A DNA stretch of 64,000 bases, taken from the NCBI RefSeq assembly GCF_028368995.1, contig NZ_JAQNDL010000004.1:640001-704000 (forward strand), written 5' to 3'. Under the pieces are notes generated by a model. That model was not told the DNA's origin. It ran no database searches and saw only the letters and a list, made by a program, of their open reading frames with translations. This DNA is from Nannocystis bainbridge (GTDB lineage: Bacteria; Myxococcota_A; Polyangia; Nannocystales; Nannocystaceae). Positions 2,051 to 59,916 of the stretch are shown here, piece by piece (position 1 is the stretch's first letter; the number at the start of each line of letters is the position of its first letter). A program made the position numbers and the translations under genes.

Positions 2051-2160
2051 GAGGCCCGCAGAGGCTCGGCGGGGCGCTTCCGCCCGGACGGTGAGCGGCC
2101 GCGCGAGGCGGCGGTCGCTTGCCGGGCGGTCGGAGCCGGAGGTACGGTGCTCACCTGCCG

Positions 2161-8315: not shown

Positions 8316-8453
8316 GCGGGGTGAGAGAGGTGCGGGGTGCGGCGGGAGGTCTGGTCTCGTCGGGGTCGTGGATGAAGTTGGGTTGCACTGTCCGGGGCGG
8401 GAGCTCGGGCTCGTTTGGGCGGTGGACAGCACGAACGAGATAGTTGCAGTGCT

Positions 8454-10028
8454 TCACGGGTCCTCGATGCAGTAGAGGGAAGAAGCGCTGGAGCAGGGGA
8501 CTACACCTCCCGAGTTTGTCCAGGTCCCGTCTGTCGCGTTCGTCTTGCCGAAGGCCCCTGAGAAATCCAGTGTCAGGTTGTTCCAGCCGTCGCAGTGGTC
8601 ATCGCCAGCGCTGGTACCATCGGCCTTAGTGTTCGTCCAAGGGGCGCTGGAAGCCTGCATGTTCAGCTCGGTCAGATCGACGGGGTGCAGCAGCTCGCCG
8701 TCAGTTAGGTCGGCCCAACCATTCTCCGCCACCGGAGTGCCGTCGATCAACACGTACGCTCCCTGATACTGAGTGTCGAGCCGATTCGCGGGCGAGGTGC
8801 CCAGGGTCGACAGCCAGGCCTTAAAGCTGGCCGCATTCGGGAGCCCGGCAGAGGTCGCCGCTGCCACGCACTTCATGTCCGCACCGCCAATGGCGCCGAG
8901 GTTGCCTTTGAATCCGGCGCTGGTGACGAAGAGGATGCGGCGGGGTTTGAGGCAGGTATTGGAGCAGGCGTCGGTGTCGATGTCGTTGCCGTCGTCGCAC
9001 TCTTCTTCGTCGGTCCAGACGATGTTGTCGCCGCAGGTGGCGGGCTGGCAGGCGTTGGTGCAGGCGTCGGTGTCGACGTCGTTGCCGTCGTCGCACTGTT
9101 CTTCGCCGGTCCAGAGGATGTCGTCGCCGCAGGTGGCGGGTTGGCAGGCGTTGGTGCAGGCGTCGGTGTCGATGTCGTTGCCGTCGTCGCAGGTCTCGCC
9201 GGGGCCGAGCTGGCCGTCGCCGCAGGCGCTGGCTTCGCAGAGCTCGTTGCAGGGCTTGTCGGGGCCGTTGTCGGGGCCGTCGTCGCACTCCTCTTCGCCG
9301 GCCCAGAGGAGGCCGTCGCCGCAGGTGGCGAGGGCGCAGGTGTCGAGGCAGGCGTCGGTGTTGTCGTCGTTGCCGTCGTCGCAGACTTCGCCATCCTCCT
9401 GGACGCCGTTGCCGCAGGTGGGCTCGGAGCAGTCGTCGGGGCAGGTGAGCATGGACTCGCCGGGGCCGCAGAGCCCGTCGCCGCAGACGCAGGCGGCGCC
9501 TTCGCAGGGCTCGCAGTCGCGGGGGCAGGTGGTGTCCTCGCCGGCCTGGCAGAGGCCGTCGCCGCAGAGGTCGGTGCAGTCGTCGGGGCAGACGGCGGCG
9601 TTTTCGTGGCGGTCGCAGACGCTGTCGCCGCAGGTGCCGGGGTGGCAGTCGACGGGGCAGCGGGCGGGGTCCTCGGCGGGGGCGCAGAGGCCGTCGCCGC
9701 AGCCGAAGCCGGGGAAGTCGCGGGGGCAGGTGGCCTGGGTCTCGCCGGGGTCCTCCTGGCCGTTGCCGCAGGTCTGGAGGCAGGCGGCGACGAAGGTCCA
9801 GTTCTCCTGGGCGTCGCAAACGGCGGCAGCCGGGCCGGTGCCGGTGGCGTCGGTCCAGAGGCAGTCGTCAGGGCAGGAGGTCTGGTTCTCGTCGGAATCG
9901 CAGACGAAGTCGTGGTTGCATGCCCAGGGCGGGTGCTCGGGCTCGCTTGCGCAGGTGATGAGTGCGAGGGCGAAGGGCACGGCCGCGAGGCCGCCGAGCA
10001 TCGATGCGAGAGCGTGGTGCTGCGTCAC
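8454..10028 (-). CDS. Surface protein with Myxococcus Cys-rich repeats (DUF4215) and C-terminal DUF1554/C-type-lectin-like head
   Basis: GTG overlapping the upstream TGA; hydrophobic signal ending LITC; repeats CGD.....EECDDGN..DTDACTNAC; C-terminal LFVTS...GNLG...C...FKAW...WT.T...LYCIE. Confidence 0.85.
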   Translation of the reverse strand: MTQHHALASMLGGLAAVPFALALITCASEPEHPPWACNHDFVCDSDENQTSCPDDCLWTDATGTGPAAAVCDAQENWTFVAACLQTCGNGQEDPGETQATCPRDFPGFGCGDGLCAPAEDPARCPVDCHPGTCGDSVCDRHENAAVCPDDCTDLCGDGLCQAGEDTTCPRDCEPCEGAACVCGDGLCGPGESMLTCPDDCSEPTCGNGVQEDGEVCDDGNDDNTDACLDTCALATCGDGLLWAGEEECDDGPDNGPDKPCNELCEASACGDGQLGPGETCDDGNDIDTDACTNACQPATCGDDILWTGEEQCDDGNDVDTDACTNACQPATCGDNIVWTDEEECDDGNDIDTDACSNTCLKPRRILFVTSAGFKGNLGAIGGADMKCVAAATSAGLPNAASFKAWLSTLGTSPANRLDTQYQGAYVLIDGTPVAENGWADLTDGELLHPVDLTELNMQASSAPWTNTKADGTSAGDDHCDGWNNLTLDFSGAFGKTNATDGTWTNSGGVVPCSSASSLYCIEDP

Positions 10029-11590
10029 GGGTCCTCGATGCAGTAGAGGGGGAAGGCGCCCGAACACGAGTTCGTGTCCGTCGAGTCGGTCCAGCCGGAG
10101 TCGATGGCGAGGGTAGAGCCGTACAGCCCCTTGTTCTGCCCGGAGTTGCTCGTCCAGAAACTGCAGTGGCTGTTGCCTGCGGGAGTCCCGTCGGCCTTGG
10201 TGTTGGTCCACGGGTTACTGTCCAGGAAAGCTCCGCTTTCCGTTATGTCGATGGGCTGGGAGAGAGTCCCGTCTGTGAGGCCGACCCAGCCGTTTTCGGC
10301 GACGGGAGTGCCGTCGACGAGGACGTACATCCCGACGTAGGTCGTATCCATGCGCATAGCGGGCCAGACTTCGTTCGTGGAGATCCAAGCCTTGAAGGTC
10401 ATGGGGTTCGCCAGGCCGGCGGTCATAGCTGCGGTCTGGCACCTGGCGTCGATGGCGCTCAGGAGGCCGAGGTTGCCCTGGTACGCTGTGCTGGTGACGA
10501 AGAGGACGCGGCGGGGTTTGAGGCAGGTGTTGGAGCAGGCGTCGGTGTCGACTTGGTTGCCGTCGTCGCACTCTTCTTCGTCGGTCCAGACGATGCTGTC
10601 GCCGCAGTCGGCGGGCTCGCAGGCGTTGGTGCAGGCGTCGGTGTCGATGTCGTTGCCGTCGTCGCACTGTTCTTCGTCGGTCCACAGGATGTCGTCGCCG
10701 CAGGTGGCGGGTTGGCAGGCGTTGGTGCAGGCGTCGGTGTCGATGTCGTTGCCGTCGTCGCAGGTCTCGCCGGGGCCGAGCTGGCCGTCGCCGCAGGCGC
10801 TGGCTTCGCATAGCTCGTTGCAGGGCTTGCCGGGGCCGTTGTCGGGGCCGTCGTCGCATTCCTCTTCGCCGGCCCAGACGATATTGTCGCCGCAGGTGGC
10901 GGGCTGGCAGGTGTCGAGGCAGGCGTCGGTGTTGTCGTCGTTGCCGTCGTCGCAGGCTTCGCCGGGCTCCTGGACGCCGTTGCCGCAGGCGGGCCCGGTG
11001 CAGTCGTCGGGGCAGGTGAGCATGGACTCGCCGGGGCCGCAGAGCCCGTCGCCGCAGACGCAGGCGGCGCCCTCGCAAGGCTCGCAGTCGCGGGGGCAGG
11101 TGGTGTCTTCGCCGGCCTGGCAGAGGCCATCGCCGCAGAGGTCGGTGCAGTCGTCGGGGCAGACGGCGGCGTTTTCGTGGCGGTCGCAGACGCTGTCGCC
11201 GCAGGTGCCGGGGTGGCAGTCGACGGGGCAGCGGGCGGGGTCCTCGGCAGGGGCGCAGAGGCCGTCGCGGCAGCCGGGGCCGGGGAAATCGCGGGGGCAG
11301 GTGTCCTGGGTCTCGCCGGGGTCCTGCTGACCGTCGCCGCAGGTGTCGAGGCAGGCGGTGACGAAGGTCCAGTTCTCGCGGGCGTCACAGACGGCGGCGG
11401 CGTCGCCCTCGCCGGTGGCGTCGGTCCAGAGGCAGTCGTCGGGGCAGGAGGTCTGGTTCTCGTCAGGGTCGCAGACGAAGTCGTGGTTGCACTGCCAGGA
11501 CGGATCGGTGGCGGCCAGGAACTCGCCGCGGAGGCAGCTCGTGCCGACGAGAGCGAGCGAGAAGGCGAAAAGGAGGTGCTGGCGCGCCAT
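10025..11590 (-). CDS. Paralogous DUF4215 + DUF1554-like lipoprotein
   Basis: MARQHLLFAFSLALVGTSC lipoprotein signal; same architecture as 8454-10028. Confidence 0.85.
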   Translation of the reverse strand: MARQHLLFAFSLALVGTSCLRGEFLAATDPSWQCNHDFVCDPDENQTSCPDDCLWTDATGEGDAAAVCDARENWTFVTACLDTCGDGQQDPGETQDTCPRDFPGPGCRDGLCAPAEDPARCPVDCHPGTCGDSVCDRHENAAVCPDDCTDLCGDGLCQAGEDTTCPRDCEPCEGAACVCGDGLCGPGESMLTCPDDCTGPACGNGVQEPGEACDDGNDDNTDACLDTCQPATCGDNIVWAGEEECDDGPDNGPGKPCNELCEASACGDGQLGPGETCDDGNDIDTDACTNACQPATCGDDILWTDEEQCDDGNDIDTDACTNACEPADCGDSIVWTDEEECDDGNQVDTDACSNTCLKPRRVLFVTSTAYQGNLGLLSAIDARCQTAAMTAGLANPMTFKAWISTNEVWPAMRMDTTYVGMYVLVDGTPVAENGWVGLTDGTLSQPIDITESGAFLDSNPWTNTKADGTPAGNSHCSFWTSNSGQNKGLYGSTLAIDSGWTDSTDTNSCSGAFPLYCIEDP

Positions 11591-11727
11591 CGCTGGATCG
11601 TATGCGAGGGATCCGCGAGGAGCAACGGCGCAAGGCGGCTGGGGGGCCACCAACGCCCGTTGGGGAGGGGGCCAACTGCGGTTGGGTGCTCGCGTTCGTC
11701 GGCGGTTTTCCGTAGACTCGCGGGTCC

Positions 11728-12942
11728 ATGGTCTGCGTCCTCGTGGCCGCTCTCCTGCTGCTGGCGCCCGCCGCCCCGACCGTCGGGCCGCCGGCCGCCG
11801 GCTCGAACGCGCCGTCGAGCGGCGAGGAGCGCCGGGGTCGCGCGCAGGCGGCGTTCGAGCACGGCCGCTTCGCCGAGGCGGCCATCGAGTACGAGTCGCT
11901 CTGGCGCGAAGGACATGGCGCTTCGGACCTGTTCAATGCGGCAGCTTCAAGGTTCGCGCTGCGTCACTACGCGCACGCGGTGGCGCACCTCGAGTCGCTG
12001 CTGGCGCTGTCGTCGTTGACGCCGGCGCAGCGCGAGGAGGCGGCCAACCTGGCGCAGATCGCCCGCGGCAAGACGACGGCGGTGGCGCTGGTGCTGCGAT
12101 CGCCGCGTCCGCTGGCGACGCCGGTGACGGTGACGCTGGCGGTGGTGTCGGCGTTCGCTTCGGATCAACGGCCGGACATCACGAGGACGATCGGGCCCGG
12201 CGACCGCGCGACGCTGGCGCTCGACGCGGGGGTGTGGCGCATCAGCGTCGACGATCCGCGCTTCGAGCCGGTGACGCTCGAGGTGCGGGTGGAGCCGACG
12301 CCGTCGACGACGCCGCAGGTGCTCGATCTGCGGGCCCGGCCCGACGCGCGCGGGCTGCGGCGGTTCGCGCTCGGCTGGGGAACCGCGGGCGCGGTCGGGG
12401 TGGTGGCGGGCGCGGGGCTGCTGGGGGCAGGGCAAGGGCGCTGGTCGTCGCGGCTGGACACGCCGATCGAGGAGTGCACGCCAGGCAACCCGGTCTATCC
12501 GATCGCGGCGTGCCGCGACGCGCTGGCGGGCGCCGGCAACCTGCGCACGGCCGGCGGCGGGGTGCTCGGGGTCGGCGTGGGCGCGCTGGTGGGCGGCTTG
12601 GTGGCGCTGGCTCCGACGCCGCGCGGACGAAAGATCGGGTGGACGGCGACGGCGGTGGTGGGCGGGCTCTCGGCCATCGGTGGGGCGGTCGCGCTCGGGC
12701 TCGGGGTGCAGCAATTTTCGGAGCGCAACGATCGCTCGGCGTGGACAGCGGAGGATCACCGGGCGCTCGGCGGGGCTGCGGCGACGCACACGGTCGGGGC
12801 GGTGTTCGTCGGCCTCGGCGGCGGGCTGCTGGCGAGCTCGGCGACGGGGCTGGTGCTCGAGCGCTCGGGTAAGTTCTTGGTGTCGGCGAGCCCGCAGATG
12901 CGCGTGGGCGGGGCGGGGCTGACGATTCAGGGGCGGTTCTAG
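11728..12942 (+). CDS. Exported TPR-like/PEGA-like membrane protein (myxobacterial type)
   Basis: Signal peptide; TPR-like AQAAFEHGRFAEAAIEYE..LFNAA; beta-rich middle; Gly/Ala-rich hydrophobic hairpins; C-terminal GLTIQGRF. Confidence 0.7.
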   Translation: MVCVLVAALLLLAPAAPTVGPPAAGSNAPSSGEERRGRAQAAFEHGRFAEAAIEYESLWREGHGASDLFNAAASRFALRHYAHAVAHLESLLALSSLTPAQREEAANLAQIARGKTTAVALVLRSPRPLATPVTVTLAVVSAFASDQRPDITRTIGPGDRATLALDAGVWRISVDDPRFEPVTLEVRVEPTPSTTPQVLDLRARPDARGLRRFALGWGTAGAVGVVAGAGLLGAGQGRWSSRLDTPIEECTPGNPVYPIAACRDALAGAGNLRTAGGGVLGVGVGALVGGLVALAPTPRGRKIGWTATAVVGGLSAIGGAVALGLGVQQFSERNDRSAWTAEDHRALGGAAATHTVGAVFVGLGGGLLASSATGLVLERSGKFLVSASPQMRVGGAGLTIQGRF

Positions 12943-44854: not shown

Positions 44855-45037
44855 CGCCGCGAAAATTCCAATCAACATACTCCGCGCGCGGTTACGGACG
44901 CGCCGGAAATGTCACGAGTCCGAACGGTTCTCGTGACCGACGAATGACGAGCCCCCGGGGGTCGAGCCCGGGAATGGCGCGTCTGTTCGGCGGTGCGGGC
45001 CAATCGTCACAATTGAGAAAGACCTCGAGGTTACGTC

Positions 45038-46435
45038 ATGTCGAATGCTCAGAAACCCGGTGATTTTGGCTCGCAGACCAGCCTGGCGACCGCAGCAGCG
45101 CGCAATTTGGCGACGACGACCAAGTCGGAGCCGCAGATGCAAGGCATCAGCTCGCGGTGGCTGCTCAAGCTGCTGCCGTGGGTGCGCGCCGCGGGCGGCG
45201 TCTACCGCGTCAACCGCCGCCTCAGCTACGCGATCGGCGACGGTCGCCTCAGCTTCACCAACGTCGGCGCCAAGGTGTCGGTGGTCCCGCAGGAGCTGAG
45301 CGAGCTGCCGCTGCTGCGCGGCTTCGACGACGTCGAGGTGCTCGCGGCCCTGGCCGGCAAGTTCGTCCAGCGCGAGTACAAGGCCGGCGAGTTGCTGGTC
45401 GAGGCCGGCAAGCCCGCCGACCAAGTGTTCCTGATCGCCCACGGTAAGGTCAACAAGCTCGGCACCGGCAAGTACGGCGACGAGACCGTGCTGGCGGTGC
45501 TGGCCGACGGCGCCCACTTCGGCGACCAGAACCTGGTCGAGGAGAACGACACGTGGGGCTTCACCGTCAAGGCGGTGACCCGCGTCATCGCCCTGACGCT
45601 GCCCGAGAAGGCGCTCGCCGACGCGGTCGAGCAGTCGCCGGCGCTGCGCGCCCAGGTCGAGAAGTTCAAGGCCAACCGCGGCAAGCCGCAGAGCGGCCAG
45701 GGCGAGGCCGAGATCGCGCTGGCCTCCGGCCACCGCGGCGAGGTGGCGCTGCCGGGCACGTTCGTCGACTACGAGCTGTCGCCGCGGGAGTACGAGCTCA
45801 GCGTGGCCCAGACGGTGCTGCAGGTGCACTCCCGCGTCGCCGATCTCTACAACGAGCCGATGAACCAGACGCAGCAGCAGCTGCGCCTGACCATCGAGGC
45901 GCTGCGCGAGCGGCAAGAGCACGAGATGATCAACAGCCCCGAGTTCGGCCTGCTCCACAACGCCGACCTCAAGCAGCGCATCCACACCCGTTCGGGCCCG
46001 CCGACCCCGGACGACCTCGACGAGCTGCTGGCGCTGGTGTGGAAGGAGCCGACGGCGTTCCTGGCCCACCCGCGCACCATCGCGGCGTTCGGCCAGGAGT
46101 GCAGCAAGCGCGGCATCTACCCGCACCCCGTCGAGTTCGCGGGGCATCACATCCCGGCGTGGCGCGGCGTGCCGATCCTGCCGTGCAACAAGATCCCGGT
46201 GACCGACACCCGCACCAGCTCGATCCTGCTGCTGCGCGCCGGCGAGAAGAACCAGGGCGTCATCGGCCTCCACCAGCCGGGCATCCCCGACGAGGTCGAG
46301 CCGAGCCTGTCGGTGCGGTTCATGGGCATCAACGAGAAGGCGATCATCTCGTACCTCGTCAGCGCCTACTACTCGGCCGCCGTGCTGGTGCCCGACGCGC
46401 TGGCGGTGCTCGAGGACGCGGAGATCGGTCGCTGA
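45038..46435 (+). CDS. Family 2B encapsulin shell protein with inserted cNMP-binding domain (copy 1)
   Basis: [30 protein letters not shown]...GG.YRVNRR; cNMP-like core; [27 protein letters not shown]; [12 protein letters not shown]. Confidence 0.92.
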
Positions 46436-46471
46436 GGCGGCCGCGGAGCTGAGTCGTAGAGGAGACCGGTC

Positions 46472-47869
46472 ATGTCGGACACGTCGAACCCGAGAGATGA
46501 TGCGCAGACGAGCCTCGCCACGGCGGCGGCTCGCAACCTGGCGACGACCACCAAGTCGGCGCCGCAGATGGCGGGCCAGAGCCCGCGCTGGCTGCTGCGC
46601 CTGCTCCCGTGGGTCGACGTGCCCGGCGGGACCTACCGCGTCAATCGTCGCCTGACCTACGCGGTCGGCGACGGGCGCGTCGGATTTACCAGCGTCGGGC
46701 CGCGCGTGCAGGTCATCCCGCGCGAGCTGACCGAGCTGCCGCTGCTGCGCGGCTTCGAGGACGACGAGGTGCTGTCGGCGCTCGCCGATCGCTTCGTCCA
46801 GCACGAGGTCGCCGCCGGCGAGGTCATCGTCGCCGCCGGCGCGCCCGCCGATCGCGTGGTGCTGCTGGCGCACGGCAAGGCGCGCAAGCTCGGCCCCGGC
46901 AAGTACGACGATTCGCTGGTGCTCGGGCAGCTCGTCGACGGCGATCACTTCGGCGACGAAGGCCTGGTCGCGCGCGGCGACGCGTGGCCGTACACGGTGC
47001 AGGCGGTCACGCGCTGCGTGGTCCTGACGCTGTCGGAGCAGGTGCTGACGCGGGCGATCGCCGACTCCCCGGCGCTCGCCGCACACGTCGAGGCCTACGC
47101 GCGCCGACGCGCGCAGCCGCAGGACAAGAGCGGGCAGCAGGCGATAGCGATGTCCGCCGGGCACAGCGGTGAAGCGACGCTGCCGATCAGCTACGTCGAT
47201 TACGAGCTGCGCCCGCGCGAGTACGAGCTCTCGCTCGTGCAGACGATCTTGCGCGTACACACCCGCGTGGCTGACCTCTATAGTGAGCCGATGGATCAGA
47301 CGCAGGAGCAGCTGCGCCTCACGATCGCGGCGGTGCGCGAGCAGCAGGAGCACGAGCTGCTGAACCACCGCGAGTTCGGGCTGCTGCACAACGTCGACCT
47401 CAAGCAGCGGATCCCGACCCGCAGCGGGCCGCCGACGCCCGAGGACCTCGACGAGCTGCTGTGCCGTCGGCGCTCGACCCGGTTCTTCCTGGCCCACCCG
47501 CGCACGATCGCCGCGTTCGCCCGCGAGTGCACGCGCCGCGGGATCTACCCGCAGACGCTGGCGCTCGAGGGCAGCGCGATGCTCGGCTGGCGCGGGGTCC
47601 CGATCGTGCCGAGCGACAAGATGCCGATCTCCCGCGAGGGCACCAGCGCGATCCTGGCGATGCGCGTCGGCGCCGAGTCGCAGGGCGTGATCGGGCTGCA
47701 CCAGACCGGCATCCCCGACGAGGTCGAGCCGAGCCTTTCGGTGCGCTCGATCGGGGTCGACGACCGCGCGGTCCACGAATACCTGATCACTGCGTACTTC
47801 TCGGCGGCGGTGCTGGTGCCCGACGCGCTGGGGATGCTCGAAGACGTGGCGATCGGTCGCCAGGAGTAG
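46472..47869 (+). CDS. Family 2B encapsulin shell protein (copy 2)
   Basis: Same length (465 aa) and motifs as copy 1; AGGAG RBS. Confidence 0.92.
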
Positions 47870-50224
<2,355 letters not shown>

Positions 50225-50297: not shown

Positions 50298-51392
50298 TCA
50301 GCGCGGCGCGGTGGCCTGCGCGGCCTCGATCTCGGCGTGGATCGCGGGCGCGTGGAGCCGGGTCCACTCGAGCACGGCGCGCAGCTGGACGCCGTAGTTC
50401 TCGGTGCGCACCGCGACGCCGTCGAGCTTGATCGTCGCGCCGGGGAGCTCGCGGTGGCCGCGGTGCAAGGCGACGACGCCCCACTCGTCGTCGCACACCG
50501 GCGAGCCGGAGGCGCCGCTGCGGGTGTCGGTGAGATAGCTGAGCCAGTGGCTGTCGCCGTGCACGACGAAGTTGTTGCGCAGGCCGATCCGCATCGGCTC
50601 GCCGTCGGGGTGCTGCAGGACGTTGACGCACTCCGCCAGCGGGGTGTCGCGGGTGCGCTCGAGCGGGCGCACTCGCAGGCGCAGCGGCGGACGGTCGACG
50701 GGCCCCAGCCGCAGCAGCGCGAAGTCGAGTTCGGCGTCGGCGGCGACGACCTCGAGCACACCGACCGATTCGAAGGGAGCGTCGGGGGCGAGGTAGTCGA
50801 ATTGCAGGACGGTCCCGCGGGCCTGCAGCGCGAAGTCAGTGGCGGTGATCGTCTCGCCGTCCTGGCGCGCGGCGATGACGTGATGGTTGGTGATGCCGAG
50901 GTTGGGCGCGATCAGCCAGCCGGTGCCGGTCGAAACCTCGGGGCTCTCGTCGGCCTGGTAGCGCGGCTTGTCGCCGAAGTGACGGTGGACCAAAACCTTG
51001 GCCACCGACTTGGCCGCCTCGGCGCCGCGGACGAGGAAGCGGGCGGAGATGGTGTGATCGCGCCGGGTCGACAGGGCCTCGAGGTGGAGGCGCGAGAGCT
51101 GCTCGGGCGAGGTCCAGGCGTAGGGCTTGGGCTGGGACCACTCGGCCGCGACGGCCTGGATCTCGGCGCTGCGGCGCGGTCGCTCGGCGCACAGAGCGGC
51201 GAAGAAGCGGGCGTCGACGAGCTGACGGCGCTCGAGCAGTTCGCACGCGGCCTCGACGAGCTGCACGGGCGGAACGTTGGCGCCGGGCAGGGCGAGGATC
51301 ACCTCGTCGCCGAAGCCGTAGCGCAGGAATCGCCGCAGCTCGTCGGCGCTGAACATGCTGAGCAAGAGGCGCTCCAACCGTTGTGTTCGCAT
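50298..51392 (-). CDS. EAD-like helical domain + trypsin-like (V8-type) serine peptidase
   Basis: N-terminal LLLSMFSADELRRFL...LPG...LLERR.L...FF.AL..ERP; TGTGWLI...TNHHV, LDFALL, QHP.G, TDTRSGASGSPV, ALH. Confidence 0.85.
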   Translation of the reverse strand: MRTQRLERLLLSMFSADELRRFLRYGFGDEVILALPGANVPPVQLVEAACELLERRQLVDARFFAALCAERPRRSAEIQAVAAEWSQPKPYAWTSPEQLSRLHLEALSTRRDHTISARFLVRGAEAAKSVAKVLVHRHFGDKPRYQADESPEVSTGTGWLIAPNLGITNHHVIAARQDGETITATDFALQARGTVLQFDYLAPDAPFESVGVLEVVAADAELDFALLRLGPVDRPPLRLRVRPLERTRDTPLAECVNVLQHPDGEPMRIGLRNNFVVHGDSHWLSYLTDTRSGASGSPVCDDEWGVVALHRGHRELPGATIKLDGVAVRTENYGVQLRAVLEWTRLHAPAIHAEIEAAQATAPR

Positions 51393-51445: not shown

Positions 51446-53200
51446 TCACTCGGGTTCGGGCGCGCCGAGGCGGACCTCGAGGGTGATCGGGACGACGATG
51501 CGCAGGCTGTCGGTGGTGGTCGTTGCGGTGGTGGGGGCGAGCTGCACGCGACGTCGCGGTCGCGCGGGGGCGGCGGTCGTGTCGGCGATCCGCCGGCGCA
51601 GGGCCATGGAGGCGTGGCGCGGGACGGCCGGCAGCGGTGATTCGCCGAGGACCGCGTCGACCAAAGCGCGACGATAAACAGGGTCGACGACGAGCTGCTG
51701 CAAGACCTCGACGCCGAGGCCCGGGGCGGCGGTCGTGAGGTCCTCGCGGGCGCCGGCGCCGAGCAGGTGGGCGACGCCGAGGCGGACGCGCTGCTCGACG
51801 CTGCGGGTCTGCGCGTGCGCCGAGACGATGGCCTCGTGCGGGCCCGTGCGACCGCGTGCGCGCTCCAGGGCGAGGGGCAACAAGGCGTCGACGAGCATCG
51901 CTTCGGGGGCGGCCGGCGGCGTGGCGCCTGGGGCCTCCTCGCCGAGCGGCAGCGGGGCCTGCAGCAGGGCCGCGCAGTCGAGCAGGCCGGCGCCGAACCA
52001 CGCCCGCGGGAACGGGCCGGGATCGAGGGCGTCGCGGGTCGAGCCGGCGAGCGCGCGGCGAAACGCCTGCGGCAGCGCGGCGCCGGGGTAGCGCTGGCGC
52101 AGCGCGACGGGGTCGTGCCGGGCCAGCCACAGCGCGGCGGCCGAGGCGACCAGGGCGGTCGCGTAGGAGGTGCCGCTGCTGATCCGCGTCACGGCGTCGC
52201 CGTCGCGCCAGTCGGCGACGAGCATGCGGTGGCCAGGGGCCGTCAGGGCGACGCTCGGGCCCTTCGACGAGTCACTCCATACCTGTCCTTTAGGACCGGT
52301 GGCCGCGACGGCGAGCACCTCGGGATAGGCGGCCGGCCAGACCACGAACTGCACGTGGTTGCCGGCGGCGGCGACGACGATGACGCCGCGCGCGTGGGCC
52401 CGCTCGACCGCGCGGCGCAGGCGAGCGCCAGGCAGGCCGCCGAGGCTGAGCGAGACGACGTGACAGCCGCGCGCGACCGCGTGGTCGATGGCCTGGGCCA
52501 GGCGCGCGTGCCAGGTGAGGATGACGACCGAGTCGGTGACGCGGATCGGCACGAGCTCGGCGGCGGGCGCGAGGCCGACGACGCGGTGCGGCAGCCGTTC
52601 GCGGCCGACCATGAGGCTGCTGGTCGCGGTGCCGTGGCCGGGTTGGCCCACTGGCGCGAGCGGATCGATCGGCGGGCTGCCGGGCTCCATCAGGTTCAGG
52701 CCCTGGTCGTGCAAGACGGCCGCGCCGGCGAGGCTGGGGTGCTCGGTGGTGCCGCTGTCGGGGTGACCGATCCGCACACCGTGGCCGTGGCCGTGCTGCC
52801 AGGCGCGCTCGGCCCCGATCTCGGCCAGATGCCAGCGCGGCGGGGGGTTGATGGAGAGCTCGGTGCCGGGGGCCTCGCGCACTTCGGCGGCGATCCGGGC
52901 GTCGATCTCGGTCAACGCGTGATCGAGCTCGGCCTCGGCGATAGCGGCGAGCTCGGGGCGAGCGGCCAGCGCTTCGGTCAGCGCGTGGGCGGCGTTCCAG
53001 CCGCGGCGCAGGTCGGTGCCGGCGGGCGCGAGCACCTCGATCAGCCGCCGCGGCTCGCCGGGGTCGGCGGGGCCGCGGACGCGCCAGCCGCGAGCGGCGA
53101 GGCCCGCGGTCTGCACGGCGTGCTCGACGGCGGCGGCGGCGTGGGCGGCGGTGTCGGCGGTGAGCTCGACGACGACGCTGCGGGTGTTCGGCGGGTTCAT
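51446..53200 (-). CDS. S8 (subtilisin-like) serine peptidase, no signal peptide
   Basis: HPDSG (Asp), GHGT (His), AAAGN, SGTSYAT (Ser); ATG overlaps the upstream stop (ATGA). Confidence 0.9.
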   Translation of the reverse strand: MNPPNTRSVVVELTADTAAHAAAAVEHAVQTAGLAARGWRVRGPADPGEPRRLIEVLAPAGTDLRRGWNAAHALTEALAARPELAAIAEAELDHALTEIDARIAAEVREAPGTELSINPPPRWHLAEIGAERAWQHGHGHGVRIGHPDSGTTEHPSLAGAAVLHDQGLNLMEPGSPPIDPLAPVGQPGHGTATSSLMVGRERLPHRVVGLAPAAELVPIRVTDSVVILTWHARLAQAIDHAVARGCHVVSLSLGGLPGARLRRAVERAHARGVIVVAAAGNHVQFVVWPAAYPEVLAVAATGPKGQVWSDSSKGPSVALTAPGHRMLVADWRDGDAVTRISSGTSYATALVASAAALWLARHDPVALRQRYPGAALPQAFRRALAGSTRDALDPGPFPRAWFGAGLLDCAALLQAPLPLGEEAPGATPPAAPEAMLVDALLPLALERARGRTGPHEAIVSAHAQTRSVEQRVRLGVAHLLGAGAREDLTTAAPGLGVEVLQQLVVDPVYRRALVDAVLGESPLPAVPRHASMALRRRIADTTAAPARPRRRVQLAPTTATTTTDSLRIVVPITLEVRLGAPEPE

Positions 53201-55233
53201 GCGTCCTCCGGCGCGGGCGTGAACTCGACGAGGTCGACCCATTGTGGGTGATCGATGAACGGGTTGCGGTTGCCCTGCACGGCGAAGATGGCCTGATTGC
53301 GGTGACGCTCGTGGAGGCCGGGCGGATCGTCCGTGGACCAGCGCTTCAGCAGCTCGATCTGGGCCGGCGTGGGCGTGCGGGAGGGGTCGAGCTCGCTGGC
53401 GTAGCGGACCAGGAAATAGAGGGTCGCGCGGGCGACCGGGCCGTGGCCGTCGCCAGGCTCGAAGTACGGGCCCTCGCCCTCGCCGCAGGGCGGCATCGGG
53501 GTGTCGCGGTCGAACTCGTGGTAGGCGCGGTCGGCCCGCAGGGTGTTGCAGGGCGGGTCGCAGGCGAAAAGATGGTGGAGGTCGCCGCGCATCGGCTCGC
53601 GCTTGCCGAACCAGCTCTGCGGGACCACGTGCTCGCAGTTGTAGGGCAGCTCGGCCTCGACGGCGGCGTCGATGTCGGCGAGCGAGAGGGAGGTGCGGCG
53701 CGCCCGCAACTCCGATCGGCGGGCCCGGCGGGCGGCGTCGATGCGGGCGTCGTCGGCGATCAGGGCCTCGGGCGAGAAGGTCGCGCCGGAGTAGATCGAG
53801 GCCAGGCGGAGGTCGGGGCGGAGGTCGACCCAGGGGTAGAGCTGGTGGCTCGGATTGTATTTCGGCGCCTCGGCGTGGGTGGTCGTGAGCAGGGCCGAGA
53901 GCGATTCGTGGCAGATGTCGTGGAGGATGTCGGCGTAATAGCTCGCGCGATCGCTGGCGTCCTGGGCGGCGTCGTAATACGGGCGAGCGCGGGCGGCGGC
54001 GACGAGGCGGTGCAGGTCGGCGGCAATGGGGGCAGGCTGCTCGACCGCAGCAATGGTGGCACCCGCCGCGGTGCCGAGCCGCACGGTGATCTCGATCGGC
54101 ACGGTGATGCGCAGGGTCTGGCCCGGAACGGCGACTGTGGTGATTGACGGCGCCGGGGCGATCGGCGGCGCCTGCTCGAGGTCGTTCCAGGCGGCGCTCC
54201 ATTCGCCCGGCAATTCGCGGGGCGCGGCGGCGCCGGCGAACCGGACCCCGGCGTCGACGATCCGCGGATCCCAGGCGAGCTCGGCGGCGGGGACGGCGAA
54301 GTTGCGGTCGAGGTAGACGCCGCCGAAATGCAGCCCGAGCACGCGGCCGGTGGCGACGTCGAGGATCGCGGCGCCGGAGCAGCCGCCGAGGGTCGAGGAG
54401 TCGTGCAGCGCGGCCGAGACGGTGCGGCCGAAGCTGGCGACGCGGCGGCGGCCGCCGAAGTAACCGGGGGCGAGGCGTTTGAGGTTGTAGCGGCCGCGGA
54501 ACACGCGTTGCTGGATCGTCAGGTCGTTGCGCAGATCGAGGCCGGGATAACCGATCACTGCGACGCGCCGACGGGCGGCAGGATCGTCGACGGCGAGCGC
54601 GAGCGGGGTGACCTGCAGGCCGTCGACGCGCAGCAAGGCCAGGTCCCAGTAGGGGTGGATCAGGACGACCTCGGACACTGCGTAGGTGGGGCCGTCGGGC
54701 TCGTCCTGCTGCTCGCGGCGCGGATCGAAGCCGGCGGTCTGGCCGGGGAGGAAGCGCAGGTGGGTGCGCCCGAGGCCGCCGGCGAACAGCTGGGCGACGT
54801 GGCGATTGGTCATGATGAGGCCGTCGCCGACGACGAAGCCGGTGCCGCCGTAGGGCAGCGAGAGGTTGTCCGGCAGCTCGATGCGGCCGATCGCCGGCAG
54901 GCAGGCTTCGATGCGCGCGCGGAGGTCGGCGTCGGCGTGGAGGTCGAAGAACTCGCCGGGCGGCAGACCGAGCAGCTTGCCGTCAGCGATGTCGGCGACG
55001 GGCCGCTCCCTGGGCAGGATGATCGCCTCGAGGCACTCGAGGTCGCCCGGCGCGAGCGGGGCGCGATCGATCCACTTGCGGGCGGTGCTGCGGACCTGAT
55101 CGGTCTGGCGCGCGTCGAGGCCGAACCACTGGGCGGCGCCGGCGACGATGGGCTCGACGGAGGCGCTGGATTCGAGGTGGGACGGTGGCAGGATGGAGTC
55201 CGCGTAGGCGCGGACGCGGGCGGGCGAGGCCAT
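53197..55233 (-). CDS. Trypsin-like (V8-type) peptidase fused to Endonuclease I (His-Me finger) nuclease
   Basis: GTGFVVG...TNRHV, WDLALL, TLGGCSG, GLHFG; then NCEHVVPQSWF, DLHHLFAC...CN..R, G.VARA.LYF..RY, W...DPP...E..RN..I...QGNRNPFIDHP. Confidence 0.9.
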   Translation of the reverse strand: MASPARVRAYADSILPPSHLESSASVEPIVAGAAQWFGLDARQTDQVRSTARKWIDRAPLAPGDLECLEAIILPRERPVADIADGKLLGLPPGEFFDLHADADLRARIEACLPAIGRIELPDNLSLPYGGTGFVVGDGLIMTNRHVAQLFAGGLGRTHLRFLPGQTAGFDPRREQQDEPDGPTYAVSEVVLIHPYWDLALLRVDGLQVTPLALAVDDPAARRRVAVIGYPGLDLRNDLTIQQRVFRGRYNLKRLAPGYFGGRRRVASFGRTVSAALHDSSTLGGCSGAAILDVATGRVLGLHFGGVYLDRNFAVPAAELAWDPRIVDAGVRFAGAAAPRELPGEWSAAWNDLEQAPPIAPAPSITTVAVPGQTLRITVPIEITVRLGTAAGATIAAVEQPAPIAADLHRLVAAARARPYYDAAQDASDRASYYADILHDICHESLSALLTTTHAEAPKYNPSHQLYPWVDLRPDLRLASIYSGATFSPEALIADDARIDAARRARRSELRARRTSLSLADIDAAVEAELPYNCEHVVPQSWFGKREPMRGDLHHLFACDPPCNTLRADRAYHEFDRDTPMPPCGEGEGPYFEPGDGHGPVARATLYFLVRYASELDPSRTPTPAQIELLKRWSTDDPPGLHERHRNQAIFAVQGNRNPFIDHPQWVDLVEFTPAPEDA

Positions 55234-55610: not shown

Positions 55611-56981
55611 TCAATCGACCTGCGGAATGCAGGGACAGTCGTCCCAGTCGCCGACGCACAGCTGCTCCGGCGGGGCGTTCAATTGTTGTTGCACCCATCC
55701 GTCGACCTGCGCGGGCGTCACCTGGGTGTCGATGAATTGCAGCGACTTGACGAGCTCCTGCACGCTGCCGAGGCCGTCGAGCGAGGTGAGGCCGGGGCTG
55801 TTGGTGACGACGAGGAACCGCGCGCTGGTCAGCGCGTCGAGGCCGGCCAGGCTGGTGAGGCCGTCCATGCGAAAGCCGGTCTGCGAGCAGTCGCCGATGG
55901 CGAGGTTCACGTCGACGAGCTTCAGCTGCTCGAGGCCGTGGAGGTCGGTGACCTGCGGCAGGCCCGAGACCTGCAACGTGTGGACTTGCTCGAGGGCGGC
56001 CAGCTGCGCCAGATCGGGGACCTGGGGCAGGTCGCGCAGCGACAGCAGGCCGGCGGCGGCGATCGTCTCGAGGCCGGCGAGCGACGCGAGCTCGGGCAAC
56101 GAGCGCAGCCGCAGCGTCATGTCGGGGCCAGCCTGGGCGAACAGGGCGGCGCTGGGCGACAGATCGGCGAGCGTCGCGTTGTCGGCGAGCAGCACTTCGA
56201 GCGCGGTGATGCCGGAGTACTTCAGCGTGGCGAGCGCGTCGACGTCGACGAGGGCAGGGTTGCCGACCACGTGGAGCTCCTCGATGCCCTCGTAGTCGGG
56301 CGCGAACGTCGGCAGGCTGGTGATCCCGGTGGCGAAGATGTCGAGCGTGACCAGCCGCTTCAGGTTGGCCAGCGCGGACATGTCGGTGAGCGCCGGCGTG
56401 TCCTCGATGCGCAGGCTGAACAGGTCCTCCACGCAGGCGAGCGGCGAGAGGTCGGTCAACACGGCGTTGCTGTCGAGCTGCAGCGCGCTGGCGGTGACGA
56501 GGTTGGCGAAGCCCGCGAGCTGCGCAACGGTGAGGTCGCCGGTGATGTGGATCGATCCGGTCACGCGCGTGACGCAGGCCATGAACTCGGTCGAGTCGCC
56601 GGGCCCGATCTCCACGTTGCCCTCGAACTCGAGCGCCTCGGGGCACGGCGGTCCGCAGTCGACGGCGGACTCGCCGGTGGTGGTGGTGTCGCCGGTGGTC
56701 GAATCGCTGGTGGTGGTGTCGCCGGTGGTCGAGCTCGTGAGGGTCGTCGTGCCGTCGCTCGTGTCCGTGGTGGTCGAGGCGGCGCTCGTGGTCGGTCCCG
56801 GCGGGTCGCCGGTGGTGCTGTCCGTGCTCGTCGACGACGGCGGCCCGTCATCGGTGGTCGGCGAGGTGTCCGAGGTCGTCCCGGGCCCGCTGACGCTCTC
56901 GCCGTCGGTCTCCGTGTCGGCGGGCTTGGGAGCGCAGGCGAGAGTCACGATGCACGCGAGCCACGAATGAGCACGAGCCAT
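55611..56981 (-). CDS. Lipoprotein with Thr-rich stalk and receptor-L/LRR-like repeats
   Basis: Lipobox TLAC; repeats L.I.DN..L.DL..L..L. Confidence 0.8.
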   Translation of the reverse strand: MARAHSWLACIVTLACAPKPADTETDGESVSGPGTTSDTSPTTDDGPPSSTSTDSTTGDPPGPTTSAASTTTDTSDGTTTLTSSTTGDTTTSDSTTGDTTTTGESAVDCGPPCPEALEFEGNVEIGPGDSTEFMACVTRVTGSIHITGDLTVAQLAGFANLVTASALQLDSNAVLTDLSPLACVEDLFSLRIEDTPALTDMSALANLKRLVTLDIFATGITSLPTFAPDYEGIEELHVVGNPALVDVDALATLKYSGITALEVLLADNATLADLSPSAALFAQAGPDMTLRLRSLPELASLAGLETIAAAGLLSLRDLPQVPDLAQLAALEQVHTLQVSGLPQVTDLHGLEQLKLVDVNLAIGDCSQTGFRMDGLTSLAGLDALTSARFLVVTNSPGLTSLDGLGSVQELVKSLQFIDTQVTPAQVDGWVQQQLNAPPEQLCVGDWDDCPCIPQVD

Positions 56982-57290
56982 CCGCGCAGCGTACATGCGC
57001 GTGGCGATCCGGCTCAAGGCGCGGACGAGCCCTCGCGTGGCGAGGAGATCGCCGTGGCTGCAGCGCGCGGCGACGCGGCCGGAGCTGCGCGATGTTCGGG
57101 CCTCGCAGGCCGAGGGACTCGGCGGCGCGAAGAGGCAGCGCGCACGCTCGCGGACGCGACGGACGGGTCAGCGCATGAACCCGGTGTCGGGAGACACGGG
57201 CCGACGGTCGGGGGCGCAGGTGGCCACCGGGCTTCGACGCAGGGCGAGCGGCCGGCGCCGAAGGGCGAGCGAGATCCGCCCGCGGCCCGC

Positions 57291-59648
57291 TCAGCCGATG
57301 GCCTTGCAGGCCGGGCCGAGGCTGGCGGTGTTGTTGTCGGTGCGGCACTCGTGCCACGGGTGCTCGGGCATGCCGTCGTCGACCACGAGCACGAGCGGCT
57401 TGCTGCCATCGATGAAGCTCGGCGGCAGCTCGGGCAGCTCGAGCAGCAGCTCCTGGGCCTCGGCGGGGTAGAGCACCTTGGTGGTGACGAGGGTGCCGAG
57501 CAGGGTGCCGCCCTGGTTCGGGTCGCCCTCGTAGAAGCCGACGGGCACGCCGGCGGGCACGGCGGCCTGGCCGAGGTTGCGCACGCGGGCGAACGCCTTG
57601 AAGCCGTCGAAGCACTGGGTGTGGCCGCTGACGACCAGGTCGGGCGCGGCGAACTCGCCCTCGGGCTGGACGTTCTGGCGGAAGTTGTTGAGGCCGGGCG
57701 TGGTCCAGTTGGTCGCCTCGACGGCGGGGATGGTGCCGTCCTCGGCGACGTTGGTGACGTGGTAGGCGTGCTGGTTCCAGATCCGGCGCGTGCGCACCCA
57801 CTGGTTGTTGGCGTCGCCGAAGATCCGCACGCCGCGGGTCTTCATCTGCTCTTTGGGACAGGTGAGGCTCGAGTAGTCGTTCGAGGTGACGACGATGTCG
57901 GCCTGGCCGTCGTTGTCGACGTCGGCGACCAGCGGGTACTCGTGGAGCGTGCCGGAGGTGTTGCAGATCTCGGTCAGGACCTCGCCGGTGGCGCCGTCGT
58001 AGATCCGCATGTACTGCTCGTCGGCGTAGACGACCTCGGCCGAGCCGGAGCCGTCGAAGTCGAACACCGAGCTGCCGGTGAACGCCGACGAGCAGTCCTG
58101 CGTCTGCTTGATCCACAGGAAGGTGTCGGCCGCCGCGACGGCGGGGTCGAGCAGCTTCTTGCCGTCGAACACGGCGTAGCCGATGCCGCCGGCGACGCCG
58201 ATGTCGGGGGTGCCGTCGCCGTTGAAGTCGGCGATGGTCGGCGGGCCGCCGCCGCCGATGTTGCCGGCGCTGTCGGGCGGGCACAGGTCGGGCGACAGCG
58301 GGCCGTTGATGTCGAGGTCCTGGCGGACGACGACGAACAGGCCGGGGGCGTTGGGGTCGTAGCGCCAGATGTTGAGGTCGTGGGTGCCGGTGCCGTGGGC
58401 GTTGTCGATGCCGACGATCTCGGGCACGCCGTCGAGGTCGAAGTCGGCGACGGCGGGGAAGGTGCCGCCGAGGCCGGTGTCGACGAGCACGGTGCCGTCG
58501 ATCTCGAGGACCCGGGTGGGGGTGACGATCTCGAGCTGGCCGTCGCCGTCGACGTCGGCGGCGATCGCCTTCTTGTTCCACCAGCTGCTGGTGATGGCGT
58601 CGATGGTGAGCTCGAGCGCGCCGGTCTTGCCGTCGAGCACGCTCGACTCGGTGAGGATCTCGACGTTGCCGTCGCCGTCGAAGTCGGCCAGCGAGATGTG
58701 GTCGCAGCCGACGACCTCGGCGGTGATCCACAGCTCGGCGCCGGCGGCGGTGTAGGCCCGCACCTTGCCCTCGGCGGTGCAGGCGACGACCTCGTTGCCG
58801 GCGACGCCGTCGATGTTGCCGGCGGCGAGCGAGCGCCCGCCGAACAGGGTGTCGACGGCCGGCTTCTGCGTCCACTTGGTGACCAGCGCGCCGTTGACGA
58901 TCGAGATCGCGTGCAGGGTGCCGTCGGAGCTGTAGTTGCCGTCGTCGAACGACATGAACACGATCTCGGGGATGTCGCGCTCGTCGACCTCGCCGTTGCA
59001 GTCGTCGTCGTCGAGCTGGATGACGATCGGCGGCATCATCACGCTGGCGTCGGTCCACGCGTACTTGAGCACCGGCTCGAAGCTGGTCTGCGGCTTGAAC
59101 TCGCAGCGGGGCAGGCAGTCGATGTCGTCGCCCTCGGGCACGACGCCGGGGTCGCACTCCGGCGGCTCGGGCAGGCACTTGCCGGTGGCCGGCACGAACC
59201 CGCCGCCGCACTGGTCGCCGCCCATGCTGCCGGGCTCGCCGAGGGTGTATTCACAATAGTTGCCCTCGGGGCATTCGGCGGCGTCGACGCATTCGGCGCC
59301 GGGGACCACGCATTGCTGGAACGAGCACACCTGGTCCGATTGACAGCAGACCTCGCCGCACGCGAGGTCGGCGGCGCAGCAGACGTCGCCGACGCAGGCG
59401 CCGTCGGGGCAGCTCTCGAGGTCGCAGGCGGCGCCGGTGGTGCCGTCGCTGTCGGTGAGGCCGCCGCTGCCCTCGGTCGGGACGACGTCGGTGGTGGCGT
59501 CGGTGGTGGCGCCGGTCAGGCCGTCGGTGACGGTGATCGAGGTGCCGGGGGTCGTCGGCGTCGCGGTGTCTTCGGCCGGGCGACCGTTGTCGCCGCAGGC
59601 GGCGACGATGGCGACGAGGAGGTTGGGGGCCAAGATCGCGCGACGCAT
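57291..59648 (-). CDS. FG-GAP/VCBS repeat beta-propeller lipoprotein with C-terminal CARDB-like domain
   Basis: Lipobox VAAC; ADFDGDG..EI repeats; RRIWNQHAYHVTNV; PDLVV...VRNLG...V.FY.G.P...EC..DNN. Confidence 0.88.
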   Translation of the reverse strand: MRRAILAPNLLVAIVAACGDNGRPAEDTATPTTPGTSITVTDGLTGATTDATTDVVPTEGSGGLTDSDGTTGAACDLESCPDGACVGDVCCAADLACGEVCCQSDQVCSFQQCVVPGAECVDAAECPEGNYCEYTLGEPGSMGGDQCGGGFVPATGKCLPEPPECDPGVVPEGDDIDCLPRCEFKPQTSFEPVLKYAWTDASVMMPPIVIQLDDDDCNGEVDERDIPEIVFMSFDDGNYSSDGTLHAISIVNGALVTKWTQKPAVDTLFGGRSLAAGNIDGVAGNEVVACTAEGKVRAYTAAGAELWITAEVVGCDHISLADFDGDGNVEILTESSVLDGKTGALELTIDAITSSWWNKKAIAADVDGDGQLEIVTPTRVLEIDGTVLVDTGLGGTFPAVADFDLDGVPEIVGIDNAHGTGTHDLNIWRYDPNAPGLFVVVRQDLDINGPLSPDLCPPDSAGNIGGGGPPTIADFNGDGTPDIGVAGGIGYAVFDGKKLLDPAVAAADTFLWIKQTQDCSSAFTGSSVFDFDGSGSAEVVYADEQYMRIYDGATGEVLTEICNTSGTLHEYPLVADVDNDGQADIVVTSNDYSSLTCPKEQMKTRGVRIFGDANNQWVRTRRIWNQHAYHVTNVAEDGTIPAVEATNWTTPGLNNFRQNVQPEGEFAAPDLVVSGHTQCFDGFKAFARVRNLGQAAVPAGVPVGFYEGDPNQGGTLLGTLVTTKVLYPAEAQELLLELPELPPSFIDGSKPLVLVVDDGMPEHPWHECRTDNNTASLGPACKAIG

Positions 59649-59916
59649 TGCGAGGATGGGACCACGTGGACCCCGACGATGACAAGTCGGCGCATGCGGA
59701 TCGGCGGCGGCGATGCGTCCGCGTGGTCTGCGATGCCGCTCGCCGGACCGCCGGCGCCCGGCGTCGCGGTGAATTCGCGGATTCACACGAGGGCCGCCCG
59801 GCCGGCGCGCGGCCGCCCGCGGGTGCGCGTTCGCCCGCGGCGCGCAATCGGCTTCATCGCGCGGGCCCCGAAACCCGCGCGGAATGGGGGCACTCGGCGG
59901 ACGAGGCGGCGGCGAA

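Follow-up and report, generated by a model that had tools for sequence, protein, structure and literature searches.

A strand-like peptide motif shared by a trypsin-nuclease fusion and its neighbouring subtilase in Nannocystis bainbridge

The bacterial systems that combine a NucA nuclease with several peptidases are known by computation only, and they raise two questions: how is the nuclease kept silent, and how do the proteases recognise each other? We addressed these questions in a 64,000-nucleotide stretch of DNA from Nannocystis bainbridge, here called the window (contig NZ_JAQNDL010000004.1, 640,001-704,000; genome of 11.05 Mb, about 72% G+C). It contains an operon of three genes, which lie head to tail on the minus strand from 55233 to 50298. 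They encode a fusion of a trypsin-like protease with a nuclease (the fusion), a subtilase of the S8 family (the S8) and a second trypsin-like protein. The original prediction for this locus was that the linker of the fusion and the C-terminus of the S8 carry the same beta-strand peptide motif, and that this motif couples the two proteins. We find that the motif is present in both proteins, that it is a conserved part of the trypsin module in other bacteria, and that it is found on the S8 protease where this is encoded as a separate gene beside the module.

The motif shared by the fusion and the S8 protease

The features of the operon are as follows.

55233..53197, minus strand: gene 1, the fusion, 678 amino acids, with a helical N-domain, Trypsin_2, the motif-bearing linker and Endonuclease I (open reading frame, start codon and Pfam)
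53200..51446, minus strand: gene 2, the S8 subtilase, 584 amino acids, with a propeptide-like N-domain, a catalytic domain, a helical C-domain and a tail (Pfam and AlphaFold2)
51392..50298, minus strand: gene 3, 364 amino acids, with a helical N-domain and Trypsin_2, motif-free (Pfam)
54073..54117, minus strand: motif copy 1, fusion residues 373-387 (sequence, genome pattern scan and hidden Markov model)
51464..51508, minus strand: motif copy 2, S8 residues 565-579, five residues before the stop codon (sequence, genome pattern scan and BLOSUM62 scan)
54022..54174, minus strand: flexible trypsin-nuclease linker, fusion residues 354-404 (AlphaFold2 and conservation)

Both peptides are found in the adjacent genes as predicted, within a 20-residue segment of the fusion (54120-54061) and a 21-residue segment of the S8 (51511-51449) that is followed directly by the stop codon. 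The Ala/Pro/Thr-rich, low-complexity stretch that had been noted ahead of each copy is also present. The two genes are tightly linked, since the ATG of gene 2 overlaps the stop codon of gene 1 (ATGA), and we call them translationally coupled.

By BLASTP alone, the likeness of the two copies is marginal, with 10 of 15 residues identical and E = 0.019 for that single comparison. Across the six frames of the genome, a strict pattern and a degenerate [LIVM]-class pattern each occur exactly twice, at these two sites. An ungapped BLOSUM62 scan with the 15 residues of the fusion covered 18.0 million six-frame positions, and the S8 tail scored 48, against 71 for the fusion itself and 40 and 39 for the next best positions. 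Thus, the best non-self match in the genome sits in the neighbouring gene. The fusion motif can also be recovered from a distance. A hidden Markov model (HMM) trained solely on 45 motifs of distant trypsin modules, from homologues that share no more than 49% identity with the fusion, finds it genome-wide with E = 5.9e-6 (28.3 bits for the whole open reading frame, 27.2 for the matched stretch). The same model matches the tails of S8 proteins from elsewhere, namely P0126 (20.7 bits), P0132 (16.5), P0124 (16.3), P0125 (14.8) and P0244 (13.1). We therefore confirm the observation of a shared 15-residue motif in the fusion and the S8.

Neither copy belongs to a folded domain of its own protein in the predicted structures. 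In the AlphaFold2 model of the fusion (mean predicted local distance difference test, pLDDT, of 86.8; run with an alignment of 67 sequences), residues 362-396 have a pLDDT below 50, and no secondary structure is present between the helices at 343-353 and 405-416. The trypsin domain is modelled complete, with pLDDT above 90, without the motif. The model of the S8 has a mean pLDDT of 89.3 and begins with a propeptide-like domain of beta-alpha-beta-beta-alpha-beta order (residues 5-93). Its residues 543-584, which include the motif, have no secondary structure and a pLDDT of 52-66. Both copies thus lie in segments that AlphaFold2 leaves unfolded. The protease fold of the fusion resembles the MarP, V8 and HtrA proteases, and a search of the PDB with this model gave no hits other than ordinary MarP, V8, Spl and HtrA proteases, and nothing that bears on the linker.

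The motif in trypsin modules and S8 proteases of other bacteria

Of 8000 candidates scored, at least 1017 are related to the fusion at E <= 0.001. The motif profile reaches 8 bits or more in 104 of the 120 homologues listed, and in 102 of these matches the motif lies between residues 329 and 444, just past the protease domain; in the other two, P0023 and P0024, it is at 176-197 and 484-496. The profile was seeded by 51 regular-expression matches from the same 120 homologues, and 53 of the 104 are new detections. In the 67-sequence alignment, Pro379 and Trp349 are invariant (67/67) and the catalytic residues H145, D197 and S286 are conserved. Residues 377-387 form an island of conservation (2.1-4.3 bits, compared with about 1 bit for the Ala/Pro/Gly-rich flanks) with the consensus T-[IV]-P-[LI]-[EQ]-[IV]-T-[VI]-[RS]-[VLI]-G. 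It is hydrophobic at every second position, so the strand-like character named in the original prediction is real and conserved. Because this island coincides with low pLDDT, the motif is a conserved linear element in a flexible linker, outside either fold.

When one genome per species was scanned, 422 relatives were found, and we fetched 80 of these loci. A clear module is present in 79 of them, and 67 of these 79 keep the motif in the same frame at 9 bits or more. Among the remaining module loci, six have weaker matches (7.3-8.9 bits) at the expected place, and one, L020, has the motif in the next frame. In this locus (L020:7992-10153) the trypsin module stops ahead of the motif, and 3 bases on, in the other frame, is the start of a NucA protein that has the motif at its beginning. 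L020 could be taken as a case of the motif moving with the nuclease after a split, but since the reading frames differ, a frameshift in the metagenome-assembled genome (MAG) is as likely, and we do not use it as evidence.

What follows the motif varies. In a chosen subset of the 80 loci, the Pfam domains downstream are Endonuclease_1, Endonuclease_NS, Lipase_3, an LCAT-like hydrolase, Metallophos, PLDc_2 or S8, and further arrangements have NucA plus S8, NucA plus Metallophos, or nothing at all. Fifteen homologues have fewer than 470 residues. The motif is kept in 10 of them, and 5 of these 10 end at most 6 residues past it; in these five stand-alone modules, the motif cannot serve the release of a cargo. 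The motif is therefore a constant C-terminal element of the trypsin module in more than 100 homologues, most of them without an S8, and the idea that it is a private link of the pair in the window does not hold. The original prediction had also suggested using an HMM to ask whether the motif co-occurs in adjacent genes across genomes. The motif itself is widely kept, as described above, and such pairing was seen in only 3 of the 80 fetched loci (L001, L004 and L010) and in the window.

Nannocystis species are the nearest relatives of the window in our searches. L001 and L004 are Nannocystis loci, and L010 is from a planctomycete and carries its second copy in a Pro-less form. The orthologous fusions of N. 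exedens (L002) and N. punicea (L003), at 73-74% identity, have no adjoining S8, and thus the S8 is variable within the genus. The third-gene trypsin is also variable, being kept in N. exedens and replaced by a PG_binding_1 protein in N. punicea. In L001 (Nannocystis sp. RBIL2) the third gene (L001:11913-13838) encodes a 641-residue Trypsin_2 plus Endonuclease_NS protein, unlike the 364-residue trypsin with a helical domain in the window, and this locus therefore has two nuclease-bearing proteases. In L010, a Planctomycetota MAG, the module and S8 pair (1835-12461) is flanked by TIR-SLOG and LRR-Roc-COR-TIR proteins, an arrangement like an immune island.

On the S8 side, a profile search covered 1.84 billion protein representatives and gave 2437 at E <= 1e-30. 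Our examination covered the 24 best of these, without counting the partial P0127. If a tail is defined by an alternation score of 5 or more, a 13-residue alternating strand lies at most 14 residues from the C-terminus in 15 of the first 19 representatives. P0245 is weak, and none of the next five has the strand (0/5). As a background, 129 of 70,726 13-residue segments reach the tail score in fusion homologues outside the linker. The 11 nearest relatives, with 37-76% identity to the window S8, have a common C-terminal layout, in which an 'AS-x-x-L-R' helix is followed by a variable low-complexity linker and then by a stretch of 13-17 residues that is hydrophobic at every second residue. Ten of the 11 end about 14 residues or fewer past the strand; in P0132 another 62 residues follow the motif. 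A Pro is present at the motif position in P0123 (the window S8), P0124, P0126 and P0132 and at another position in P0191, and most S8 tails lack the Pro. The hydrophobic positions are kept and the polar ones are free to vary, and this pattern, judged from these alignments, is what marks a packing strand, as opposed to a sequence-specific site.

The helix that precedes the tail is itself of interest. At S8 residues of about 527-538 (about 51587-51622), a conserved 'AS-x-x-L-R-x-x-L'-like helix is where most relatives end, and in the subfamily of the window S8 the strand tail is appended past it. In an alignment of 61 sequences, Ser531 is nearly invariant and Glu498 is invariant. Two proteins, P0126 and P0127, from a metagenome and a Myxococcales MAG, are S8 proteases with the motif at both ends. 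At their start, about 20 residues are similar to the N-terminus of the trypsin module, which looks as though the trypsin and nuclease domains had been lost and only motif-S8-motif remained.

Nine of the 80 loci, and the window itself, combine the module with an S8 related to that of the window. Six loci have it fused behind the module (L044, L048, L057, L058, L065 and L070), and in three it is a separate gene (L001, L004 and L010). Single chains of the order Trypsin-NucA-S8 were identified with Pfam in L058 and L065 and by full-length alignment to these two in L044, L048 and L070. Fusions of the opposite order, S8-Trypsin, are found in P0167, P0147 and P0177. The types of fusion are therefore Trypsin-motif-S8, Trypsin-motif-NucA-S8 and S8-Trypsin, so that in other genomes the S8 gene is joined to either of its neighbours. 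Fusions in both directions show that the three gene products act together.

Whether the S8 is split or fused goes together with its tail. All four separately encoded S8 proteases beside a module (window, L001, L004 and L010) have the strand, whereas none of nine fused S8 domains has an alternating C-terminal strand (the six loci above plus P0195, P0229 and P0242; scores of at most 4 over the last 40 residues).

Searches in other sets of genomes added no further pairs. The window S8 has five matches in 401 Myxococcota genomes, including its own, and the other four have neither module nor tail. In 401 genomes of the phylum of L010, P0131 matches only itself. A metagenome scan for S8 relatives gave, among the matches listed, mostly generic subtilases; the motif was found in none of 80 loci, and one (L082) had a weak trypsin neighbour.

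A tether, a cleavage tag and other possible explanations

Our preferred reading, which we put forward tentatively, is that the motif is an amphipathic beta-strand tag that acts between molecules as a non-covalent tether and replaces a covalent link. Each separately encoded polypeptide of this multi-protease system would carry one strand, in a flexible linker or tail, and these would either pair among themselves or dock on the trypsin module. The S8 zymogen would thereby be held on the trypsin-Endonuclease I protein, and within such an assembly the proteases could cut in trans and so release or unmask the nuclease. The S8 gene of Nannocystis may have split from the long Trypsin-motif-nuclease-S8 chain found in other bacteria, with the C-terminal strand taking the place of the lost covalent link. 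A tether of this kind accounts for the single strand per polypeptide, the flexible setting, the modules without cargo and the contrast between split and fused genes. We infer the binding of the strand, its target and its role in proteolytic activation from this comparison. Since the motif is common to two proteins that form one polypeptide elsewhere, the docking or assembly role proposed in the original prediction is a reasonable reading, and it is plausible on comparative evidence. Co-folding of fusion residues 1-400 with S8 residues 535-584 gave an interaction score (ipSAE, interaction prediction score from aligned errors) of 0.02 in both runs, against a mark of 0.32; the runs had no controls, and by the rule of the tool this speaks neither for nor against binding.

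Several observations weigh against a tether. In L002, L003 and most of the 80 loci, the motif is kept with neither an S8 nor a second motif gene in view. Tethering of an S8 therefore cannot be the primary role, and self-association of the module must be assumed. The contrast between split and fused genes comes from few independent lineages, with three Nannocystis species and one planctomycete on one side and two groups of fusions on the other. The window S8 tail is weak by the standard of the family. It is not among the 12 best matches of the distant-motif HMM in the genome, and it scores 8.0 bits (E 0.035, among 254 S8-family proteins); it is thus closer to the Nannocystis version of the motif than to the family consensus. 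On the strand of the module, conservation extends to both faces, with T, P, E/Q and T kept on the polar one, and on the aligned sequences this would fit binding in a cleft as well as pairing of strands. Finally, the interaction between the S8 and the fusion is a prediction from sequence comparison.

The main rival is that the motif is a shared recognition or cleavage tag, which we regard as possible but less probable than a tether. It would occupy the active-site cleft of a serine protease of the system in the manner of a substrate and be cut there, and the nuclease would be freed from the protease module. The protease could be the module's own trypsin acting in trans, the third-gene trypsin or the S8, and the tail of the S8 could be trimmed, or act as a decoy, at the same site. 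The motif is placed exactly in the exposed linker that joins the constant protease to the variable effectors. In addition to the conservation of both faces, an aliphatic residue invariably comes after the invariant Pro, and many serine-protease substrates have Pro at P2. Activation by a proteolytic cascade has been predicted for this system (Kaur et al. 2020, PMC7159879). There is also an experimental parallel in the work of Evans et al. 2025 (bioRxiv 10.1101/2025.11.14.688446), where trypsin-like defence proteases activate latent effectors of antiphage systems (MBL, alpha/beta-hydrolase, Pepco as well as EACC1) by cutting after Ile in linkers or tails. The likeness is in a trypsin- or subtilisin-like protease that is linked to a toxic effector, in the silence of this effector until a site-specific cut, and in an aliphatic P1 residue (Ile). 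The difference is that those systems have a sensor-fused protease and a separate effector, whereas in the window protease and effector are in one chain, the operon has no evident sensor and cleavage is hypothetical. The word NucA does not occur in the text of Evans et al.

Other findings are difficult to reconcile with cleavage. The five stand-alone modules and the S8 carry the motif 2-6 residues from the C-terminus, and a cut there would free almost nothing. The 11-15 conserved residues exceed the contacts that are typical of a protease cleft. Most S8 tails have alternation but no Pro, which is unexpected for a specific cleavage site, and the link between split genes and tails is left unexplained. 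The tether and the cleavage tag need not exclude each other, since substrates dock in serine-protease clefts as added strands.

A bolder reading is that the motif represents a new, minimal class of homotypic adaptor, and this we consider rather doubtful. Each polypeptide would contribute one amphipathic strand, the invariant Pro would prevent runaway aggregation, and the strands would form a shared intermolecular beta-sheet, a hub for separately encoded proteases and effectors that sets the threshold of the proteolytic cascade. Effector-associated domains (EADs) and the bacterial Death-like domains are homotypic adaptors (Kaur et al. 2020, 2021; PMC7159879, PMC8195603). Their logic is the same, in that a small non-enzymatic element is present on separately encoded components that are fused directly in other genomes. 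EADs, however, are folded domains of about 90 residues, and the element described here lies in a disordered segment, as a strand of 11-15 residues.

It is improbable that the motif is a cofactor strand, which would insert into the beta-barrel of a chymotrypsin-fold protease, such as the motif-free third-gene trypsin, and complete or activate it. The NS4A peptide is a cofactor of this type for the NS3 protease of hepatitis C virus. The motif is amphipathic, of suitable length and flexibly tethered, and these operons have several trypsin paralogues. But the module trypsin is modelled complete without it, and the trypsin domain of the third gene has normal length, covering positions 1-144 of the 144 in the Pfam model.

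More improbable still is the amyloid-like mechanism that the original prediction had in mind, in which a cross-beta fold would pass by templating from one protein to the other and activate the latter, as with RHIM, HET-s-type motifs or the bacterial amyloid signalling sequences (BASS). BASS1-10 (Dyrka et al., bioRxiv 10.1101/2020.01.06.895854) and BASS11 of Bab/Agp (Ibarlosa et al., bioRxiv 10.1101/2024.11.07.622273) are precedents for amyloid signalling between adjacent defence genes. The operon resembles these in the long alternation of polar and non-polar residues and in a short motif that is common to adjacent immune-type gene products and lies in disordered terminal regions. However, the Pro in the middle of the motif is invariant (67/67), whereas a change of Asn to Pro abolishes the assembly of BASS11, and the core of 11-15 residues is shorter than the rigid core of about 25 residues in Bab (both in 10.1101/2024.11.07.622273). 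The motif also lacks the Gly/Asn/Gln signature of BASS and the G-phi-Q-phi-G signature that is common to RHIM, PP and BASS3 (10.1101/2020.01.06.895854). The operon has no NLR or STAND gene that could be a partner with an N-terminal motif; the copies are internal in the fusion and C-terminal in the S8, and most loci have a single copy. The amyloid part of the original prediction is thus not borne out.

That two hydrophobic, strand-prone stretches resemble each other by chance or composition, with no common function, is hardly credible, even with the modest single-pair BLASTP result, the weak score of the window S8 tail against the family profile and the purely binary pattern that S8 tails in general have in common, because the tail is the top non-self match in the genome scan and lies in the adjacent, translationally coupled gene, two other Nannocystis loci have the same pairing, and the trypsin-motif profile scores 13-21 bits on independent S8 tails.

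Relation to known systems and significance

Judged by its domains, the operon belongs, as a variant, to the NucA-peptidase conflict system described as System 3 by Kaur et al. 2020 (PMC7159879). In that description, a trypsin-like peptidase and a NucA endonuclease are often fused, sometimes with an S8 in the same polypeptide and sometimes with an EAD1-trypsin paralogue, and the deployment of the nuclease by a proteolytic cascade is predicted from computation only. The window agrees in having Trypsin_2 and Endonuclease_1 in one protein of 678 residues and in having several peptidases, namely two Trypsin_2 proteins and one S8. It differs in three respects. First, its nuclease is Endonuclease I (PF04231) and not NucA/Endonuclease_NS (PF01223), which is of the HNH superfamily; since most relatives tested have PF01223 on the homologous module, the window is a variant with an exchanged nuclease. 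Second, its S8 is a separate gene, unlike the chains that include an S8. Third, EAD1, which is found in a subset of these systems, was detected neither in gene 3 (no match at E <= 1) nor in the whole genome (none at E <= 0.01). Gene 3 occupies the slot that EAD1-trypsin genes hold in the related loci L012 and L025, and its N-domain aligns loosely with those proteins. The neighbours in related loci are EAD1-trypsin, bDLD2-trypsin, an nSTAND1-related NucA protein, TIR-SLOG, LRR-Roc-COR-TIR and AAA_16/TPR proteins; EAD1, bDLD2 and nSTAND1 agree with the description of Kaur et al. 2020.

The domain assignments of the three proteins are as follows. Pfam gives Trypsin_2 at residues 130-301 (4.6e-18) and Endonuclease_1 at residues 528-663 (6.7e-29) of the fusion, Peptidase_S8 at residues 139-363 of the S8 (6e-30) and Trypsin_2 at residues 156-309 of gene 3 (3.2e-17). 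In the S8, D148, H189, N281 and S345 are invariant across the 61 sequences. By eye, no signal peptide was seen in any of the three. Pfam contains models for the trypsin-co-occurring domains Trypco1 and Trypco2, and neither is among the matches of the three proteins at E <= 1. No model in Pfam, NCBIfam or PADLOC covers the motif, and NCBIfam gave nothing above its cut-offs. In PADLOC-DB 2.0, there were generic trypsin-domain matches only (the nacht model at 3.3e-9, and RT-Protease_XI), no match for the S8 and no system-specific model.

Other genes surround the operon. Convergent with it, at 45038-50224 on the plus strand, is an encapsulin-terpene cyclase cluster that consists of two tandem SrpI-like encapsulin shell genes with cyclic-nucleotide-binding (cNMP-binding) domains (465 amino acids each) and a two-domain terpene synthase of 782 amino acids. 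Going by the sizes of the open reading frames, these genes adjoin the fusion in other Nannocystis loci too. Antisense to them, at 44912-50131 on the minus strand, is an open frame of 1739 amino acids, rich in Arg, Ala and Gly, which is typical of spurious frames at 72% G+C. Upstream of the operon, at 55611-59786 on the minus strand, are a Thr/Ser-rich leucine-rich-repeat protein (468 amino acids) and an FG-GAP repeat protein (831 amino acids), which are probably surface proteins unrelated to the operon.

The System 3 section of the main text of Kaur et al. 2020 mentions neither the linker motif nor the S8 tail. Literature searches with the motif strings returned no paper, and those with the names of the systems returned only two papers, both of the Aravind laboratory. 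Thus, the motif and the rule that a tail replaces a fusion appear to be undescribed in the literature searched, while the system itself was already known from computation.

Our findings show that a conserved element of the size of one strand marks the trypsin modules of these systems, and that it reappears on the S8 protease when this is encoded separately. If strands of this kind do form a shared hub, they would be a strand-sized counterpart of the Death-like and EAD domains and of amyloid signalling motifs. If the motif is a portable tether or a portable cleavage site, it would be a useful part for engineering protease-gated effectors. In either case, its 15 residues provide an experimental handle on whether these systems are wired by docking, by cleavage or by the two together. 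The fusion and the S8 belong to a predicted bacterial self-destruct system that acts against invaders, and the tag probably holds the two proteins together or presents one to the other, allowing the nuclease to be turned on.

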